From positions 20,966-84,965 of the forward strand of contig CAMMHE010000002.1 in NCBI GenBank assembly GCA_946496575.1: DNA of 64,000 nt, in the 5' to 3' direction. The notes beneath the pieces are model-generated. The model was not told the origin of the DNA, searched no databases, and saw nothing but the letters and a program-made list of their open reading frames with translations. This document shows, one piece after another, positions 1,529 to 23,313 of this stretch. This DNA comes from an uncultured Clostridium sp. (GTDB taxonomy: Bacteria > Bacillota > Clostridia > TANB77 > CAG-508). The number at the start of each line of letters is the position of its first letter. Position 1 is the first letter of the stretch. The position numbers and the translations under genes are program-made.

Positions 1529-1824
1529 TTATATTGAGCTATTTGTCAATAATTTTTGCCTACTCACATTCACTAACTTATAACAGTAATAATTAGTATC
1601 ACGAGAAAATCTTGATACTTCTTTTGTAATTAATAAATCAAACTTTTTTTGTTTTGCATCCTCAATCATTTTTATAAAATTTTTACGTTTTAGTAAAGAA
1701 GTAGTAGTTATCCCCTCATCAATATAGCCATTAATAAATGTCCAATTACTATTTTTTCTAATGAATTAATTTGTTTTTCTTTTTCTGTTGACACTCTTGC
1801 ACAATAAACATGATCTTCATTCAA
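1529..1824 (-). pseudogene. Large serine recombinase remnant (resolvase catalytic domain only, frameshifted and truncated)
   Basis: Own translation. Frame A (TTG 1824..1822) gives NEDHVYCARVSTEKEKQINSLEK. After a run of six A (T-run 1752..1757 on the plus strand) the homology continues in another frame: NSNWTFINGYIDEGITTTSLLKRKNFIKMIEDAKQKKFDLLITKEVSRFSRDT... with a stop at 1529..1531. YxRVST and DEGxSG...SRFxR are resolvase-domain hallmarks. One extra A would restore the frame. No recombinase or zinc-ribbon C-terminal domains follow. Confidence 0.65.
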
Positions 1825-2389
1825 TATTCCATTTTTTTATTATTCTTTCATATTTCTTTTTATTAAATATATATTTTACTACAAGAAAAAATATTATTAA
1901 TATTGTAGTTATATTAGATTTTAATATGTTAAATAATATTCCCAAAAGAGGAACAACTTTTTTAACTTTTCCTATTATCTGGTTTTTATATATACCTTCT
2001 CCATCCATAGTATAATTGTTGTTTGATTTAGTATAATATACAATTTTACCATCAATTACTTCATTACTTACTATTTTATTTATTCTAATTTTTCCATTAA
2101 CAATATATGCTATATTATCATTTATTTTTATATTTTCAGTATTTTTATATTCCTTTGTTATAATTAAAGAATTTTTGGGTATTTCCTCTCTCATTGAATT
2201 TGTTTTCATTGAAAATAGGCTTATCCCCATTAAATTAAAATAATCTATTTTTCTTATCATACTATTTATTAAAAATATAATATTTAATATTACACATAAA
2301 ATCAGGAAAATATATAATGCTTTTATTATTATTTGCTTATTTCTAGTCTTTTTAAGAAATTTGATTTTTGTTTCTTTTTTCTTGCTCAA
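1817..2389 (-). CDS. S26/SipW-like signal peptidase paralog lacking the catalytic His (probable pseudo-enzyme)
   Basis: Same layout as the SipW-type paralogs (N-terminal TM, KTNSMREEI box, C-terminal TM). The conserved (V/I)THR(I/V) box reads RINKIV and TKGDNN reads TKSNNN. Overlaps the upstream peptidase gene by 38 nt. Confidence 0.6.
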   Translation of the reverse strand: MSKKKETKIKFLKKTRNKQIIIKALYIFLILCVILNIIFLINSMIRKIDYFNLMGISLFSMKTNSMREEIPKNSLIITKEYKNTENIKINDNIAYIVNGKIRINKIVSNEVIDGKIVYYTKSNNNYTMDGEGIYKNQIIGKVKKVVPLLGILFNILKSNITTILIIFFLVVKYIFNKKKYERIIKKWNIE

Positions 2390-2948
2390 TTTTCTTCTTT
2401 TCTCTCCTATATTCTTTTTTTTCTTCTTTTGTTATTTTAAAAAATAATAGTATCAATAAAATTAAAACTGTAAATAAAAATACAATCTGATTTTCTAAAG
2501 CTTTTATTAAATATCCTAATTTAGGTATAATTAATATACCCTTTCCTTCTATCTGTGTATATTCTATTTTTTCGCTATCTTCTAAATTATTATTATCACC
2601 TTTAGTTGTATATATTTTTTTACCATCTTGTTCTTCTATATTTGTAATTCGGTGTGTAATAACCTTATCATGTTGTTTAAAGGTTATTACATCACCTACT
2701 TTTATTTTTTCTTCTTTTGTTTTTCTTACTAATAAAACATCTTCTGAATTAATAGATGGCTTCATACTATCTGTTGATATAATATATGCTTTATATCCAA
2801 ATATACTAACATCATCTATTTTATTTAAGCAAGAAATAAAGACTAATATAATATTATATAATAAAATTATTATAATTACATCTATTATTTTTTTTGCTAT
2901 TCTTATATTTTTTTTTCTGTTATTTATATTTTCAATATCATATTTCAT
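2352..2948 (-). CDS. Signal peptidase I, SipW/archaeal-ER type (S26B)
   Basis: STDSMKPSI (Ser box), VITHRITN (His box), TTKGDNNNLEDSE, IIPKLGYL, N- and C-terminal TM segments. Confidence 0.8.
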   Translation of the reverse strand: MKYDIENINNRKKNIRIAKKIIDVIIIILLYNIILVFISCLNKIDDVSIFGYKAYIISTDSMKPSINSEDVLLVRKTKEEKIKVGDVITFKQHDKVITHRITNIEEQDGKKIYTTKGDNNNLEDSEKIEYTQIEGKGILIIPKLGYLIKALENQIVFLFTVLILLILLFFKITKEEKKEYRREKKKIEQEKRNKNQIS

Positions 2949-2960
2949 CTTTTATTTTCC

Positions 2961-21087: not shown

Positions 21088-21660
21088 TTATTCCGTAAAT
21101 TGTCTTGATTCTATTGTTATTTCTAACATTTCTATAATATCTTGATATTCTACAGTATTATAATTTTCAGGAAAATGTACCACCAAAGTATATATATTAG
21201 TTTTAGGTTCTTTATAATATAATTCTACTTGTTCAGTTGTTATTATTCTAAAATATGTACCATCTTCGTCTTGTTTTATCTCATTGGTCTCTATTATATT
21301 TTTTGCATCTTCCTTTCTATAGTCTTCATTCATATATAATTCATAGGTTAATGGTAAATTTGTTGTCATCCTTAATGTTAAATCATATGTCATATCTATT
21401 TCAGCTGTTTTTTGGTCATCCTGATTTGCTATTGAAAATGTGTATGTATATGCATCATGTTTAGGAAAAATTCCTGCAAGATTTAATGTCATTTTATAAA
21501 AATCTTCTTTTAACAAGTAAAATGCAATATCAACGTTTGCATTAGATGTGGCATTACTCTCATATTTAGCCAAAATTAACGTAAATATCCTAAATACTAT
21601 TATTAAACATATTATAAGTATTACTAATTTTACATATAGTATTTTTTTCCTTTTACTCAT
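21088..21660 (-). CDS. Small secreted TasA-like paralog (AKY-class signal)
   Basis: Start MSKRKK at 21660 is supported by GGAGGA 7 nt upstream (the track start at 21696 is unlikely). FTLILAKYESNATSNANVDIAFYLLKE; TYTFSIANQDDQKTAEIDMTYDL. 8-nt overlap ATGAGTAA with the peptidase stop. Confidence 0.6.
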   Translation of the reverse strand: MSKRKKILYVKLVILIICLIIVFRIFTLILAKYESNATSNANVDIAFYLLKEDFYKMTLNLAGIFPKHDAYTYTFSIANQDDQKTAEIDMTYDLTLRMTTNLPLTYELYMNEDYRKEDAKNIIETNEIKQDEDGTYFRIITTEQVELYYKEPKTNIYTLVVHFPENYNTVEYQDIIEMLEITIESRQFTE

Positions 21661-22177
21661 CTTCTTCCTCCATATTAGTTGTAATCTTGAGTGCAATTCC
21701 TAACAGGATAATAAGAGTTGTTATAAGTATTAATACTTGTGGAGATAAAATTGTTTTTCTTAAAGCTCCTAATTTTGGAATAATATATATAACTTTTCCT
21801 AATATTTGTGTTTTACTTATTGGATTATCTTCAGCATTGTTTGCATCTCCTTTTGTTATAATTTCATCATTTTCATTTATTTTTATTAATCTATGTGTTA
21901 TAAAATTATTTTCTTCTTTATAAACAATAATATCATTTTCTTGTACATCTTTTGTTATTTCTACTATTACTGCATCTCCTACTTGTATAGTATCTGCCAT
22001 ACTTCCAGTTGCGACCTCAAAAAACGTATATCCAAAAATATTTGCATAATCATTATTAAATAATTTTATTTGTATTAAATAATATACTCCCATTATTATT
22101 AATAAAGTTACAACTATTAATAATATATCTAGAATTATTCCTGATATTTTATTTATAATTTTTTTATTTTTGCTCAT
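21653..22177 (-). CDS. Signal peptidase I, SipW/archaeal-ER type
   Basis: ATGSMADTI, FITHRLI, ITKGDANNAEDNP, IIPKLGAL, N- and C-terminal TMs. Confidence 0.8.
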   Translation of the reverse strand: MSKNKKIINKISGIILDILLIVVTLLIIMGVYYLIQIKLFNNDYANIFGYTFFEVATGSMADTIQVGDAVIVEITKDVQENDIIVYKEENNFITHRLIKINENDEIITKGDANNAEDNPISKTQILGKVIYIIPKLGALRKTILSPQVLILITTLIILLGIALKITTNMEEEDE

Positions 22178-22790
22178 ATGTTATTATTTCTTCTCCTAAG
22201 TACTGACTCACATGTATTACTATTGGAATTTCTAATTTATAATTTTCACCTTTTGTTCCTATTTTTAAGTCTTCTTCATTGTTTGCTTCATCATCTTTCC
22301 ATTCAATCTCAACTTTAATATTATTTGATTTTCCTTGCTTAATATCTTCTAAAGTTATAATTCCTGTATATGTATTTTCATCAGTTTTTATTAAATCTGT
22401 TTTTTCTTCTGTTTCAGTAATGGATTTTATAGTTATATTTTTATTTGTCAAATTTTCTTGATTTAAGCTTATGTCATATCTAATAGATACATCCGTATTT
22501 TCTGGATTTATTAGTATGTCAAATGTTCCTGTTAATCCTGGTGCTAAATTTCCTTGTTTTACGTGTTCATTATTTTGCACATTTATTTCATTTATAGTAA
22601 ACTCTTTATTTGTTCCATTTGATATGTCTGTATTATTTATTTTTATTTGCCACACACCTTTAACTAAATTGATTGTCCCATCTACTTTGCTTTGAAAAAC
22701 AGCATATATTTGTATAATACAGTAAATTACAAATAGTATTATACAAATATATAATAAAAAATATATCTTTTTATGATTTTTTTTCTGCAT
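22164..22790 (-). CDS. Small secreted TasA-like subunit, paralog of 14647..15243
   Basis: IIQIYAVFQSKVDGTINLVKGVWQIKINN; LAPGLTGTFDILINPENTDVSIRYDI; IKVEIEWKDDE; VIHVSQY. Aligns block by block with the plus-strand paralog. Confidence 0.6.
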   Translation of the reverse strand: MQKKNHKKIYFLLYICIILFVIYCIIQIYAVFQSKVDGTINLVKGVWQIKINNTDISNGTNKEFTINEINVQNNEHVKQGNLAPGLTGTFDILINPENTDVSIRYDISLNQENLTNKNITIKSITETEEKTDLIKTDENTYTGIITLEDIKQGKSNNIKVEIEWKDDEANNEEDLKIGTKGENYKLEIPIVIHVSQYLGEEIITYEQK

Positions 22791-23313
22791 TATTTTCTAC
22801 CTTATCATTTTTTGAATTTCGCATATCAGCAATAACTACTGTTATTTGGTAAAAGAATGCAAGTAATGCTGGTAACACTATTAAGAATAAAAATCCCCAT
22901 TTAGATTCTAATACATTAAGTACAGTTCCAATTCCTGGTATTACTGATACATAATTTTTACTACCAAGAACATATTCACTTGATACTTTATGTTCTCCTT
23001 CAAATGTATATGTTGATTCTGTTTCAGTTATTTTTTCTAAATCTACTACTTCTCCTAGCTTTACTTCTATTTGTCTGCCATATGTATTATAAAAAAATGC
23101 TTTATCTCCAGGTAGAACTTTTTGTGATTTATCTACTATTACTAGATCTCCTTTATTAAAATCTGGAACCATTTCATTATCTGATATTATTACTAATGAA
23201 TAATTTCCGAATTCTGTTACTTTAAATTGATTGTACGATAATAAACATACTGTTATAAATACTGCAATTACTACATAAATTACAAATATGGTATTTAAAA
23301 TTGCTTTTTTCAT
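22771..23313 (-). CDS. S26/SipW-like paralog lacking both the catalytic Ser and His (pseudo-peptidase)
   Basis: Same topology (TM, YSLVIISDNEMVPDFNKGDLVIV, VIPGIGTVLNVLE, C-terminal TM). The SGSMEP box reads DNEMVP, there is no THR box and no GDNN box. Confidence 0.6.
   Translation of the reverse strand: MKKAILNTIFVIYVVIAVFITVCLLSYNQFKVTEFGNYSLVIISDNEMVPDFNKGDLVIVDKSQKVLPGDKAFFYNTYGRQIEVKLGEVVDLEKITETESTYTFEGEHKVSSEYVLGSKNYVSVIPGIGTVLNVLESKWGFLFLIVLPALLAFFYQITVVIADMRNSKNDKVENNAEKKS

Follow-up and report, generated by a model that had tools for sequence, protein, structure and literature searches.

Identity and gene content of the locus

The question raised by this 21-kb locus is what kind of system is encoded by a gene set which combines SipW-type signal peptidases, small signal-anchored proteins, an McrB/McrC-like pair, K/E-rich cytoplasmic proteins and a giant repeat protein. 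The window, that is the whole stretch of DNA which was analysed, comprises 64,000 nucleotides, and all the open reading frames listed in the preliminary description were found at their positions (Table 1). The tight packing described from 23313 to 15263 was confirmed, with neighbouring genes overlapping by up to 23 nt or separated by at most 18 nt, but a ribosome-binding site before every gene was not, as an SD-like motif was found upstream of most starts only.

The system had been regarded as undescribed; a system of this type had, however, been named CoCoPALM in one paragraph of Bell et al. 2024 (eLife 13:RP94800, PMC11090510), who placed it among the CoCoNuT-like McrBC systems. There it is defined by the fusion of an McrB GTPase with a TM/coiled-coil domain of FtsB-like type, by an McrC partner of coiled-coil type and by association with signal-peptidase-family proteins, and its detailed analysis was deferred to a later paper (PMC11090510). 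The gene content of the locus fits this published definition (PMC11090510), and no follow-up paper or experimental study of CoCoPALM was found in the literature searched. The locus is thus a named, uncharacterised kind of system. With a probability of roughly 0.6, this CoCoPALM-type locus directs a GTPase-coupled assembly of surface filaments from SipW-processed subunits and is vertically inherited in a large clade; such assembly is what we infer to be its most likely function.

Table 1: Features of the locus in order of their position in the window
Feature	Coordinates	Strand	Evidence and remarks
Degenerate SipW homologue, 190 aa, TTG start	1817..2389	-	TIGR02228 43.2 bits, below cut-off
SipW-type signal peptidase, 198 aa, 3' of giant gene (SipW_198a)	2352..2948	-	TIGR02228 99.8 bits; Ser, His, Asp present
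Giant surface protein, C-terminal ORF, 1314 aa	2961..6905	-	No signal, no SD
Giant surface protein, N-terminal ORF, 1266 aa	7003..10803	-	Signal anchor, TM 13-31; ends at frame change
cc521, cytoplasmic K/E-rich protein, 521 aa	10793..12358	-	No TM; K+E fraction 0.28
Small conserved ORF, 32-36 aa	12363..12473	-	Helical, no TM; directly upstream of 521-aa gene
c1_330, large beta-sandwich, free-standing gene	12607..13599	-	Flanking gaps 167 nt and 248 nt
tm259, bitopic protein	13767..14546	-	TM 49-67; 56/83 loci
c2_198, signal-anchored small protein	14647..15243	+	TM 8-26; hhalign 100% to c2_208
c1_211, signal-anchored beta-sandwich subunit-like protein	15263..15898	-	AF2; NTFAWF motif
Core SipW-type signal peptidase, 198 aa	15852..16448	-	TIGR02228 86.6 bits; 82/83 loci
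McrC-like partner	16448..17575	-	Pfam DUF2357 (McrC N-terminal domain), E 1.2e-11
Membrane-anchored McrB-family AAA+ GTPase, 506 aa	17594..19114	-	Profile matches, motifs, TM segment
cyt332, cytoplasmic K/E-rich protein, 332 aa, core component	19126..20124	-	No TM; 78/83 loci
c2_310, signal-anchored protein, 310 aa, core component	20141..21073	-	TM 16-34; 74/83 loci; hhalign 91% to c2_202
c2_202, signal-anchored small protein, accessory module	21088..21696	-	TM segment; hhalign 96.5% to c2_208
SipW-type signal peptidase, 174 aa, accessory module (SipW_174)	21653..22177	-	TIGR02228 75.1 bits
c2_208, signal-anchored small beta-sandwich protein	22164..22790	-	TM 9-27; YA.F motif; 50/83 loci
dSipW_A, pseudo-signal-peptidase, 180 aa, first gene of operon	22771..23313	-	TIGR02228 26.2 bits, below cut-off; 70/83 loci
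306-aa protein, divergently transcribed	23463..24383	+	Conserved neighbour in closer relatives; adjoins system in 21/83 loci

Signal peptidases

The five SipW homologues were scored against NCBIfam TIGR02228, with a cut-off of 51.85 bits. Three scored above and two below it and the catalytic residues agreed, which reproduced the earlier division into canonical and degenerate copies. The three canonical peptidases are predicted to be active from their intact catalytic residues. Ser60, His103 and Asp129 of the core peptidase were 100% conserved in its family (75 sequences), and so were Ser59, His95 and Asp111 of the 174-aa peptidase (32 sequences). Alignment of the 190-aa homologue revealed that Ser is retained and the catalytic His is absent, and this gene was recognisable in only 3 of the 83 related loci. 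The dSipW_A protein has the SipW fold with N- and C-terminal TM segments and no catalytic Ser or His; both residues were missing in all 66 orthologues (66/66), which argues that it is kept for a non-catalytic role.

Small signal-anchored proteins

In accordance with the preliminary description, seven proteins carry a single hydrophobic anchor at the N-terminus, and its end shows a motif of the A-x-(F/Y) type. The two signal classes proposed for them are more aptly treated as a single A-x-(F/Y) motif that varies by degrees, within which the subclass (S/N)T(Y/F)AWF stood out as sharply conserved. The hhalign profile comparison related these proteins to one another with probabilities of up to 100%, and they form one superfamily of paralogous signal-anchored beta-sandwich proteins. 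The c1_330 protein is the candidate major subunit: its signal anchor ends in an invariant STYAWF and its AF2 model is a beta-sandwich (pLDDT 85, pTM 0.83) for which Foldseek gave no significant fold match in the PDB. A homologue is named a 'SipW-like signal peptide' protein in one JGI record. The c1_211 protein, whose family comprises 512 clusters at 50% identity, is likely a minor subunit; its AF2 model is also a beta-sandwich (pLDDT 79), weakly matched to Ig/PapD-like folds by Foldseek, and its profile gave a marginal match to the archaeal bundling protein AbpX at the YPG..N.G motif (E 0.35). The tm259 protein has a cytoplasmic tail, rich in K and E and about 48 aa long, followed by the TM segment and an external domain, and its C-terminal region matches the C-terminus of c1_330 (hhalign 92%), making it a candidate membrane anchor or base subunit. 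The accessory module is formed by c2_208, SipW_174 and c2_202, of which c2_208 was also related to c1_211 (96.5%). The true start of c2_202 is likely the internal ATG at 21660, which has GGAGG 11 nt upstream.

The TasA/camelysin hallmarks attributed earlier to the small proteins stood as motifs only, and no significant TasA match was obtained with Pfam, PDB profiles, Foldseek or hhalign. Pfam Peptidase_M73 did not match any of them, and among the orthologues 1 of 62 reached E 0.022. The weak match of c1_330 to TIGR04088 was noted, the best score of any locus protein against this model being 14.2 bits for a cut-off of 19. TasA was absent from the PDB profile search results and from the matches listed by Foldseek (50 per model), none of them significant, and hhalign against TasA gave probabilities of 10% or less. 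Likewise, profile searches, Foldseek and hhalign revealed no statistically significant link to any solved pilin. The filament matches of highest probability for c1_330 were the donor-strand filaments 7pnb and 7ueg, both not significant.

Cytoplasmic proteins and the giant protein

The three large proteins described as TM-less (332, 375 and 521 aa) were indeed K/E-rich without a TM segment. No significant Pfam or PDB match was obtained for cyt332, and cc521 was seen in 27 of the 83 loci, flank length having restricted this count. The counterpart of the small conserved ORF is called as a gene of 32-34 aa at the same position in the related loci L001-L003 and L084-L087. What had been read as a single surface-protein gene of about 2,600 codons is in fact two ORFs (1266 and 1314 aa) separated by a frameshift, which can be joined only if a 1-nt change of frame near 7015-7025 is read through; the gene is split likewise in a second assembly (L084), which is 99.99% identical. 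The C-terminal ORF contains 11 (Y/F/V)-(G/A)-G-(G/A/S)-(N/S) repeats about 25 residues apart. All the other genes of the locus are uninterrupted ORFs.

The McrB-like GTPase and its partner

The membrane-anchored McrB-like NTPase and its partner were corroborated. The GTPase consists of a conserved N-terminal segment, a TM segment (62-80), a coiled coil (about 90-125) and the GTPase domain (about 190-506). Its Walker A (GISGTGKTS), Walker B (ILDEMN) and signature (INNDD) motifs were identified, and the two Walker motifs and the NNDD signature show no variation across orthologues. The P-loop domain matched E. coli McrB in the PDB profile search (E 0.0015), and the closest match of the GTPase domain was PADLOC PDC-M26A, the model of a candidate anti-phage system (E 6.9e-34). 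In the McrC-like protein DUF2357 spans residues 54-182 and the C-terminal half is helical and K/E-rich; Pfam and PDB profile searches detected no nuclease domain, and the latter gave no other match. The pair is not a restriction enzyme, since a TM segment replaces the DNA-binding domain of restriction McrB and the McrC-like protein has DUF2357 only.

Conservation and gene order

A set of 83 related loci, at species level, was collected via McrB searches. The McrB-like gene was directly followed by the DUF2357 gene in 83/83 and the contiguous trio McrB, McrC-like and SipW was present in 82/83, co-occurrence being thus examined in one direction only. The flanking order, with dSipW_A, c2_310 and cyt332 on one side and c1_211, c2_198, tm259 and c1_330 on the other, was kept in most of them, and c2_198 lay on the strand opposite to the rest of the locus in all 66 loci carrying it. 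This adjacency and usually fixed order with the subunit genes indicate that the McrB pair is not an insertion, and they support the earlier view of one integrated system rather than a sipW-tasA operon with a stray insertion. The best conserved component was McrB, with a median identity of 71% (65-91% across the species compared) against 32-52% for all other parts, and the least conserved and most mobile part was the module of giant protein, cc521 and SipW_198a.

The cluster search, in which the 8,000 candidates with most shared words were scored, returned more than 8,000 protein clusters (90% identity) at E <= 0.001 for the query protein, and all 120 clusters among the matches listed were at least 77% identical to it. 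In species-representative genomes 554 matching stretches were found. Housekeeping genes flank the locus in the window and in close relatives. The hosts, whose genomes measure 1.26-1.55 Mb, are uncultured Bacillota of low GC content from gut and rumen, and the host encodes penicillin-binding proteins, so that a cell wall is present. Among these uncultured gut bacteria with small genomes, the locus is conserved as a chromosomal gene set. Whether the divergent 306-aa protein, which had no match in family searches, belongs to the system is uncertain.

Alternative explanations

An ordinary SipW/TasA-type matrix-fibre operon carrying an unrelated McrBC restriction or defence cassette by chance insertion would agree with the usual role of McrB and McrC homologues in defence and with the match to a PADLOC candidate defence model. 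The contiguous trio, the 1-nt overlap of the McrC-like stop codon with the SipW start, the undetected nuclease domain, the TM/coiled-coil domain in place of a DNA reader and the highest conservation in the locus falling on McrB itself bring this explanation close to refuted. It is quite unlikely that the locus serves in phage defence or conflict as a membrane-associated system of the CoCoNuT-like branch, in which the GTPase would sense infection and the peptidases and secreted proteins would serve as effectors or a surface shield. The PDC-M26A match, the grouping of CoCoPALM by Bell et al. (PMC11090510) and the quick divergence of the paralogous surface proteins (32-45% identity) point to such a role, but gene order is constant in the 83 loci examined (with hundreds of matching stretches), the flanks are housekeeping genes, the conservation of McrB across species differs from that of defence islands with their patchy occurrence and fast turnover, family and PADLOC searches yielded neither a nuclease nor any other toxic effector that could be recognised, and about 21 kb is retained in such small genomes.

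That the locus encodes a machine of the cell envelope or of cell division, and not a pilus, was judged unlikely. Here c1_330 and its paralogues would build a coat or sheath resembling an S-layer, or would remodel a thin wall, and the FtsB/FtsL-like tether of McrB would couple it to division. The deep conservation of the gene set in reduced genomes and the large c1_330 domain without a pilin match are consistent with it, and sortases and many wall enzymes are predicted to be missing in related orders (PMC10868615). The McrB N-terminus does resemble FtsL/FtsB-type bitopic coiled-coil proteins (also PMC11090510), but the FtsL matches, seen in 21 of 65 orthologues, were weak, below threshold and typical of any TM plus coiled-coil segment. 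By analogy, one major-like subunit with several minor paralogues and a giant adhesin-like protein would fit a filament with accessory subunits better than a two-dimensional lattice. Very improbable is a dedicated export or processing system for the giant repeat protein, with the small proteins as chaperones or anchors instead of polymerising subunits; the giant protein has its own SipW copy at the 3' end of the locus and a signal resembling those of the small proteins, but its gene is the one interrupted here, no other part of the locus is as poorly conserved or as mobile as its module, and the core is retained in loci in which no giant gene was seen, an observation limited by flank length. 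Two observations were also counted against the filament reading, namely the GTPase domain being closest to PDC-M26A and the interruption of the giant gene in this genome.

Proposed mechanism and comparison with known systems

For filament assembly the following course is proposed. Sec would insert the small proteins, whose N-terminal helix would keep them in the membrane, and the active SipW paralogues would cleave at the conserved A-x-(F/Y) junction, in c1_330 probably ...TYA|WF.... By analogy with TasA, archaeal bundling pili and Sulfolobus threads, the freed N-terminal strand would allow the subunits to polymerise into an extracellular filament or sheath, with the minor paralogues and the giant protein as possible initiator, tip or adhesin parts. 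The tm259 protein with its cytoplasmic tail and the dead peptidases may serve to anchor the assembly in the membrane and to hold signal anchors without cleaving them. An McrB hexamer with McrC beneath the membrane, on its TM/coiled-coil stalk, could use GTP to organise, gate or drive assembly, and fibre or sheath assembly may thus be energy-coupled.

To our knowledge, the filaments of the SipW/TasA, archaeal bundling pilus and thread types need no NTPase, so that the role of the GTPase is purely what we infer. If the proposed mechanism is true, the system would correspond by analogy to the ATPase and platform of the type IV pilus, with a domesticated restriction-enzyme motor as its origin.

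Organisation and conservation of the locus

All the open reading frames (ORFs) of the preliminary description were present in the window. From 23313 to 1817 all genes of the locus lie on the minus strand except that of c2_198, a small signal-anchored protein, which is on the plus strand. The tight packing described for the region 23313-15263 was retained, with spacing from a 23-nt overlap to an 18-nt gap; an SD-like motif, claimed for every gap, was seen before most of the starts and not all. The features are summarized in the table.

Features of the locus and of its surroundings, with the scores against NCBIfam TIGR02228 (cut-off 51.85 bits) and the occurrence in 83 related loci
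Feature	Position	Strand	Description	TIGR02228 (bits)	Loci (of 83)
dSipW_A	22771-23313	minus	degenerate SipW homologue	26.2, below cut-off	70
SipW_174	21653-22177	minus	SipW-type signal peptidase	75.1, above cut-off	about 47-50
cyt332	19126-20124	minus	332-aa K/E-rich protein		78
McrB	17594-19114	minus	506-aa GTPase		83
McrC-like	16448-17575	minus	375-aa DUF2357 partner		83
SipW_198b	15852-16448	minus	SipW-type signal peptidase	86.6, above cut-off	
c1_211	15263-15898	minus	signal-anchored protein		75
c2_198	14647-15243	plus	signal-anchored protein		66
tm259	13767-14546	minus	signal-anchored protein		56
c1_330	12607-13599	minus	signal-anchored protein		64
c2_310			signal-anchored protein		74
c2_208			signal-anchored protein		about 47-50
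c2_202			signal-anchored protein		about 47-50
Small ORF	12363-12473	minus	32-36 aa		
cc521	10793-12358	minus	521-aa K/E-rich protein		
Giant protein, first ORF	7003-10803	minus	1266 aa, signal anchor		
Giant protein, second ORF	2961-6905	minus	1314 aa		
SipW_198a	2352-2948	minus	SipW-type signal peptidase	99.8, above cut-off	
dSipW_B	1817-2389	minus	degenerate SipW homologue	43.2, below cut-off	
306-aa protein	23463-24383	plus	divergent, no family match		21, adjoining the system
337-aa protein	24802-25815	minus	membrane protein, YcxB-like domain		
Transpeptidase	37907-39772	plus	class B PBP		
Carboxypeptidase	51949-53190	minus	D-Ala-D-Ala carboxypeptidase		

For the synteny analysis, ORFs were called in 83 related loci and assigned to the window proteins by phmmer; several of the component counts are limited by contig ends. 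The preliminary description took an absence of the McrB pair from homologous loci as the mark of a chance insertion. In all 83 loci, which were located through McrB, this gene is followed by the DUF2357 gene, and in 82 of them a SipW gene comes next. The proteins c2_208, SipW_174 and c2_202 form an accessory module. The block made up of cc521, the giant protein, SipW_198a and dSipW_B varies more than any other part and is found at different positions in different loci. McrB had a median identity of 71% to its counterpart in the window, compared with 32-52% for each of the remaining components.

The inverted c2_198 gene is unusually stable within an operon-like cluster, lying on the opposite strand in all the loci that have it. 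In one divergent locus (L078, McrB 68% identical) positions 6103-14978 hold a rearranged and apparently simpler gene set in the order tm259, c1_330-like, SipW, McrB, McrC-like, two c1_330-like genes, an unassigned gene and SipW, which may be a minimal core. The small ORF (MLDKNIDQLIEIYQKIDSFIEFLEKEKIENKQ) just upstream of the cc521 gene is called as a gene at the same position in L001-L003 and L084-L087. In some species the gene for the 306-aa protein has the giant-protein/SipW module on one side and the main operon on the other. For the 337-aa protein just outside the locus (YcxB-like domain, E 4.8e-06), no sign of belonging to the system was found. A search of positions 1-26500 against Rfam gave no match at E <= 1 for riboswitches or other RNA regulators. 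The promoter and terminator scan detected no terminators, and shuffled controls had more promoter-like sites than the real sequence; it is uninformative at 25% GC. A plasmid origin was rejected, as megablast of 12000-23400 against PLSDB returned nothing.

The McrB GTPase and its partner

The hydropathy scan of McrB revealed one strong TM segment, at residues 62-80, after which comes a conserved region of heptad-like character. The protein matched E. coli McrB with an E value of 0.011 as a single sequence and 0.0015 as a profile against PDB. Together with the DUF2357 neighbour, these results bear out the membrane-anchored McrB-like NTPase and partner described before. As the window McrB is absent from the records as an exact protein, relatives of 89-90% identity were used instead. 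The motifs GISGTGKTS, ILDEMN and INNDD are invariant. In the stretch I-N-N-D-D-S, HMMER places N347..D350 on the E. coli N-T-A-D without a gap; NNDD also allows NxD plus a further D, the form that Bell et al. give for the shortened signature defining their branch, and NxD and NxxD are indistinguishable here. Weak Pfam matches to FtsL and FtsL_2 were obtained for 21 and 20 of 65 orthologues respectively, and the families matched most often (25 of 157) included neither FtsB nor DivIC. The predicted N-terminal TM and coiled-coil architecture is present, and the term 'FtsB-like' applies at the level of architecture. The residues 1-18 of McrB (METFTRFLYEFLSQFFSG), ahead of the TM segment, hardly vary among close relatives and keep a high degree of conservation over 65 species.

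The McrC-like protein carries DUF2357, the N-terminal domain of McrC, at residues 54-182 (Pfam E 1.2e-11) and is helical and K/E-rich outside it. No nuclease domain was found in it with Pfam or the PDB profile search, where the sole match was a designed helical protein.

Signal peptidase paralogues

The five SipW-type homologues had been divided into three canonical and two degenerate copies, and the scores against TIGR02228, the model of archaeal/ER-type signal peptidase I, are in accordance with this division. Alignment of the five copies revealed that the catalytic Ser and His are kept in SipW_198a, SipW_198b and SipW_174; dSipW_A has neither, and dSipW_B retains Ser and has lost His. The last two are SipW homologues and not predicted enzymes. 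Conservation of the catalytic residues is complete (100%) in the SipW_198b and SipW_174 families; all 66 dSipW_A orthologues lack them, so that dSipW_A is a maintained pseudo-enzyme. Every paralogue has one N-terminal and one C-terminal TM segment.

Signal-anchored proteins and their relation to TasA

The seven small or medium-sized signal-anchored proteins of the preliminary description were each found to have a single N-terminal anchor in the hydropathy scan. The hhalign comparison indicated that the small proteins are one paralogous superfamily, linking c2_208 to c2_198 (probability 100%), c1_211 to c2_208 (96.5%, 173 columns), the N-terminus of c1_330 to c1_211 (95.6%) and the C-terminus of tm259 to that of c1_330 (92%). 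In all of them the anchor ends in a graded A-x-(F/Y) motif; its sharply conserved form (S/N)T(Y/F)AWF occurs in c1_330 and c1_211 and is invariant in their orthologues. Against TIGR04088, the SipW-cognate signal peptide, c1_330 scored 14.2 bits (cut-off 19), and one homologue in JGI is annotated with a SipW-like signal peptide. The AF2 models reached pLDDT 85 and pTM 0.83 for c1_330 and pLDDT 79 for c1_211. In the c1_330 monomer model residues 29-37 are of low confidence and are followed by a strand at 40-47.

The TasA/camelysin hallmarks ascribed to these proteins were examined by six approaches (Pfam on the window, Pfam on orthologues, NCBIfam, PDB profiles, Foldseek and hhalign), none of which gave a significant result, and membership of the TasA family was not demonstrated. 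Peptidase_M73 (PF12389) matched none of the seven window proteins; it appeared in just 1 of 62 c1_211 orthologues (E 0.022) and was not among the families listed (25 of 34) for 56 c1_330 orthologues. The family profiles did not find TasA (5of1, 8aur) in PDB, the best match of c1_211 being the archaeal bundling protein AbpX (E 0.35) on the YPG...N.G motif. Foldseek searches of PDB with the c1_330 and c1_211 models gave no match at E <= 0.001, and TasA was not among the 50 matches listed. In these searches c1_211 resembled generic Ig/PapD-like sandwiches, and the top-probability filament matches of c1_330 were a Sulfolobus thread (7pnb) and archaeal bundling pili (7ueg), both below 0.2. The B. 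subtilis TasA query was checked against 8aur (505 bits), and all seven family profiles aligned to it with hhalign at a probability of 10% or less. What stood of the hallmarks was the pair of co-linear motifs, with which the local alignments coincide; the assignment itself gained no statistical support. A remote homology to TasA is possible from these motifs.

A profile search of 1.84 billion representatives placed c1_211 in a family of 512 clusters at 50% identity and returned this same orphan family only, with no bridge to a known family. The family is without Pfam coverage, and no relevant Pfam domain was found in ten long or fused members (nine had none, and one had sub-threshold, unrelated matches only). 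Many members elsewhere are about 400 aa long (P0414, P0427, P0429 and others), with the c1_211-like domain N-terminal and a C-terminal extension that has no Pfam match.

Giant protein and K/E-rich proteins

The giant protein had been described as a single gene of about 2,600 codons and was found instead as two ORFs. The repeat pattern carries on in another frame over about 30 codons, which places a 1-nt frame change near 7015-7025 between them. The gene is split identically in L084, a second assembly 99.99% identical to the window, and the second ORF has no SD; the gene is thus interrupted in this lineage. It may be a pseudogene, or the split may be a site of phase variation or of recoding. 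At the split site (6905-7030, minus strand) no homopolymer tract is present. In an 89%-identical relative the first ORF is called as 1859 aa and extends beyond the end of the fetched locus. The giant protein had no match in PDB.

The three large proteins reported to lack a TM segment (cyt332, McrC-like and cc521) indeed showed none in the hydropathy scan, and Lys and Glu make up 25-28% of them. The reading of cyt332 as a degenerate EAL domain was reduced to a lead, as Pfam EAL was matched in only 1 of 61 orthologues (E 0.035) with no support from PDB. The orthologue consensus of its C-terminal third, ELIxxGYxFAxxLDxxF...FxYII, is faintly EAL-core-like, and a degenerate cyclic-di-GMP-binding module is possible there on the basis of this resemblance.

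Hosts and distribution

The GC content of the window is about 25%. The relatives of McrB comprise more than 8,000 clusters (90% clustering) at E <= 0.001, and among the 120 matches listed each is at least 77% identical. The scan with one genome per GTDB species gave at least 554 matching stretches; two peptide patterns were used, so these mean at least roughly 280 genomes. The best 80 of the at least 554 matches were all in MAGs of uncultured gut or rumen bacteria, which NCBI labels inconsistently (Clostridia, Bacilli, Tenericutes, Mycoplasma, Erysipelotrichaceae, Clostridium sp. CAG:567, Firmicutes bacterium CAG:884), and two of the loci are on complete chromosomes of 1.26 and 1.55 Mb. The hosts may belong to the GTDB orders RF39, RFN20 or ML615J-28 of the class Bacilli, whose profile they fit; a literature search gave no paper that connects CAG-567 with RF39. 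In the literature these orders appear as lineages of small genome size whose cell walls are thin or lost (PMC10868615). The transpeptidase and carboxypeptidase genes of the window indicate that this organism keeps a peptidoglycan wall.

Proposed mechanism and alternative explanations

In the mechanism that we favour, the subunits, inserted by Sec, would stay in the membrane through their N-terminal anchor until the active SipW paralogues cut them at the conserved junction, and the new N-terminus would let c1_330 polymerise outside the cell as a filament or sheath. Initiator, tip or adhesin parts may come from the minor paralogues and the giant protein. The boldest reading, to which we give a probability of roughly 35%, makes the locus a kind of prokaryotic surface-filament machine not seen before. 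A domesticated McrBC restriction motor on an FtsB/FtsL-like membrane stalk would spend GTP on driving or gating the assembly of beta-sandwich subunits processed by SipW, while the dead peptidases hold subunits. Such a machine would be a functional analogue of the type IV pilus without homology to it, and would serve small-genome gut Bacillota, a very abundant and uncultured clade, as their main surface organelle. The tm259 protein, with its cytoplasmic tail, and the pseudo-peptidases may serve as anchor and as non-cleaving binders of signal anchors, and the membrane-tethered McrB-McrC ring would give GTP-dependent organisation, gating or force.

A chance insertion of the McrB pair is excluded by the results on the 83 loci. 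A membrane-associated defence system is favoured by the match of McrB to the PADLOC candidate-defence model PDC-M26A (E 6.9e-34), but the conservation in tiny genomes, which is vertical and syntenic, speaks against it, and we regard this explanation as quite improbable. That the locus builds an envelope, sheath or division machine is rather doubtful. We also consider it unlikely that the locus is a dedicated exporter for the giant protein, given that the gene of this protein is broken up here and is conserved less well than any other part. The observations of the preliminary description are for the most part borne out. As for its composite assembly system, the integrated, NTPase-containing system is backed by synteny and agrees with a published prediction, while TasA membership was not demonstrated and the claim that it is undescribed did not hold.

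If the filament mechanism is true, these cells have put a restriction-enzyme GTPase to work in building a structure on their surface, and no NTP-coupled route of assembly would have been found before for secreted subunits of the SipW/TasA style. The hosts belong to a clade found widely in the guts of humans and animals, of which no member has been cultured and studied. The locus of about 21 kb takes more than 1% of genomes of 1.3-1.5 Mb, and it is therefore likely to be central to the attachment of the cell to, or its interaction with, the surroundings.

Comparison with known systems

The pair shares with E. coli McrBC (6hz4, 6ut6) the AAA+ GTPase core, Walker A, Walker B, an N-x-x-D-like signature and the DUF2357 partner. 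Unlike the canonical system, McrB here is membrane-anchored without the DNA-binding N-terminal domain, the partner has no PD-(D/E)xK nuclease (only DUF2357 was detected), and the pair is embedded in a secretion/processing operon. A canonical McrBC restriction system was rejected on the undetected nuclease and DNA-binding domains and the TM/coiled-coil N-terminus of McrB.

The type IV pilus and type II secretion systems are comparable by analogy, having major and minor subunits, a leader peptidase, a membrane hexameric NTPase and a large adhesin. The inferred logic of the mechanism is parallel to that of type IV pili, whereas no component of the locus is homologous: the peptidases are of the S26 (SipW) family and not prepilin peptidases, the predicted cleavage falls after the TM helix and not before it, and the NTPase belongs to the McrB (AAA+) and not the PilB family. 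Archaeal bundling pili (AbpA/AbpX; 7ueg, 9sj2, 9rhp) and Sulfolobus threads (7pnb) are made of beta-sandwich subunits joined by donor-strand exchange. They were the only filament proteins that surfaced, weakly, in searches with the small proteins, and none of these matches reaches significance (E 0.35; Foldseek probability <0.2). To our knowledge, no McrB-like NTPase is present in either of them.

With tapA-sipW-tasA of B. subtilis and sipW-bsaA-bsaB-bsaC of C. perfringens the locus shares a SipW-type (ER/archaeal-type) peptidase beside secreted beta-sandwich proteins, a substrate signal peptide ending in a T-x-A-x-F-like motif and, with TasA, the co-linear motifs PG...N.G and W/F-acidic...Q. 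No dedicated NTPase takes part in the polymerisation of TasA and BsaA (PMC11580942). In contrast to these operons, the locus has five peptidase paralogues (two degenerate), seven substrate-like paralogues without a significant TasA match in sequence or fold, an added McrBC-derived GTPase pair and cytoplasmic K/E-rich proteins.

The nearest counterpart is CoCoPALM, named by Bell et al. (eLife 2024;13:RP94800) in one paragraph with the analysis deferred to a later paper; a locus of the same kind had thus already been named when it was called undescribed. Beyond this paper and its preprint, the word occurred in the library searched in unrelated papers only, and it is absent from those supplementary files of the paper that the search covered. 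Three features of CoCoPALM were found here, namely an McrB-like GTPase with an N-terminal TM and coiled-coil (FtsB-like) extension, a nuclease-less DUF2357 McrC homologue with a helical/coiled-coil extension, and the tight linkage of the pair to signal-peptidase-family genes, represented by five S26/SipW homologues. Absent from the main text on CoCoPALM are the seven signal-anchored beta-sandwich paralogues, the conserved pseudo-peptidases, cyt332, tm259, the giant protein and the near-universal syntenic presence in the small-genome gut Bacillota clade. On sequence grounds the window locus is a CoCoPALM system, having the core, the TM/coiled-coil, the DUF2357 partner and the peptidase linkage that were tested. 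The class is named in print and still awaits detailed analysis, for which this locus is a concrete entry point, supplying a parts list and testable predictions for CoCoPALM.
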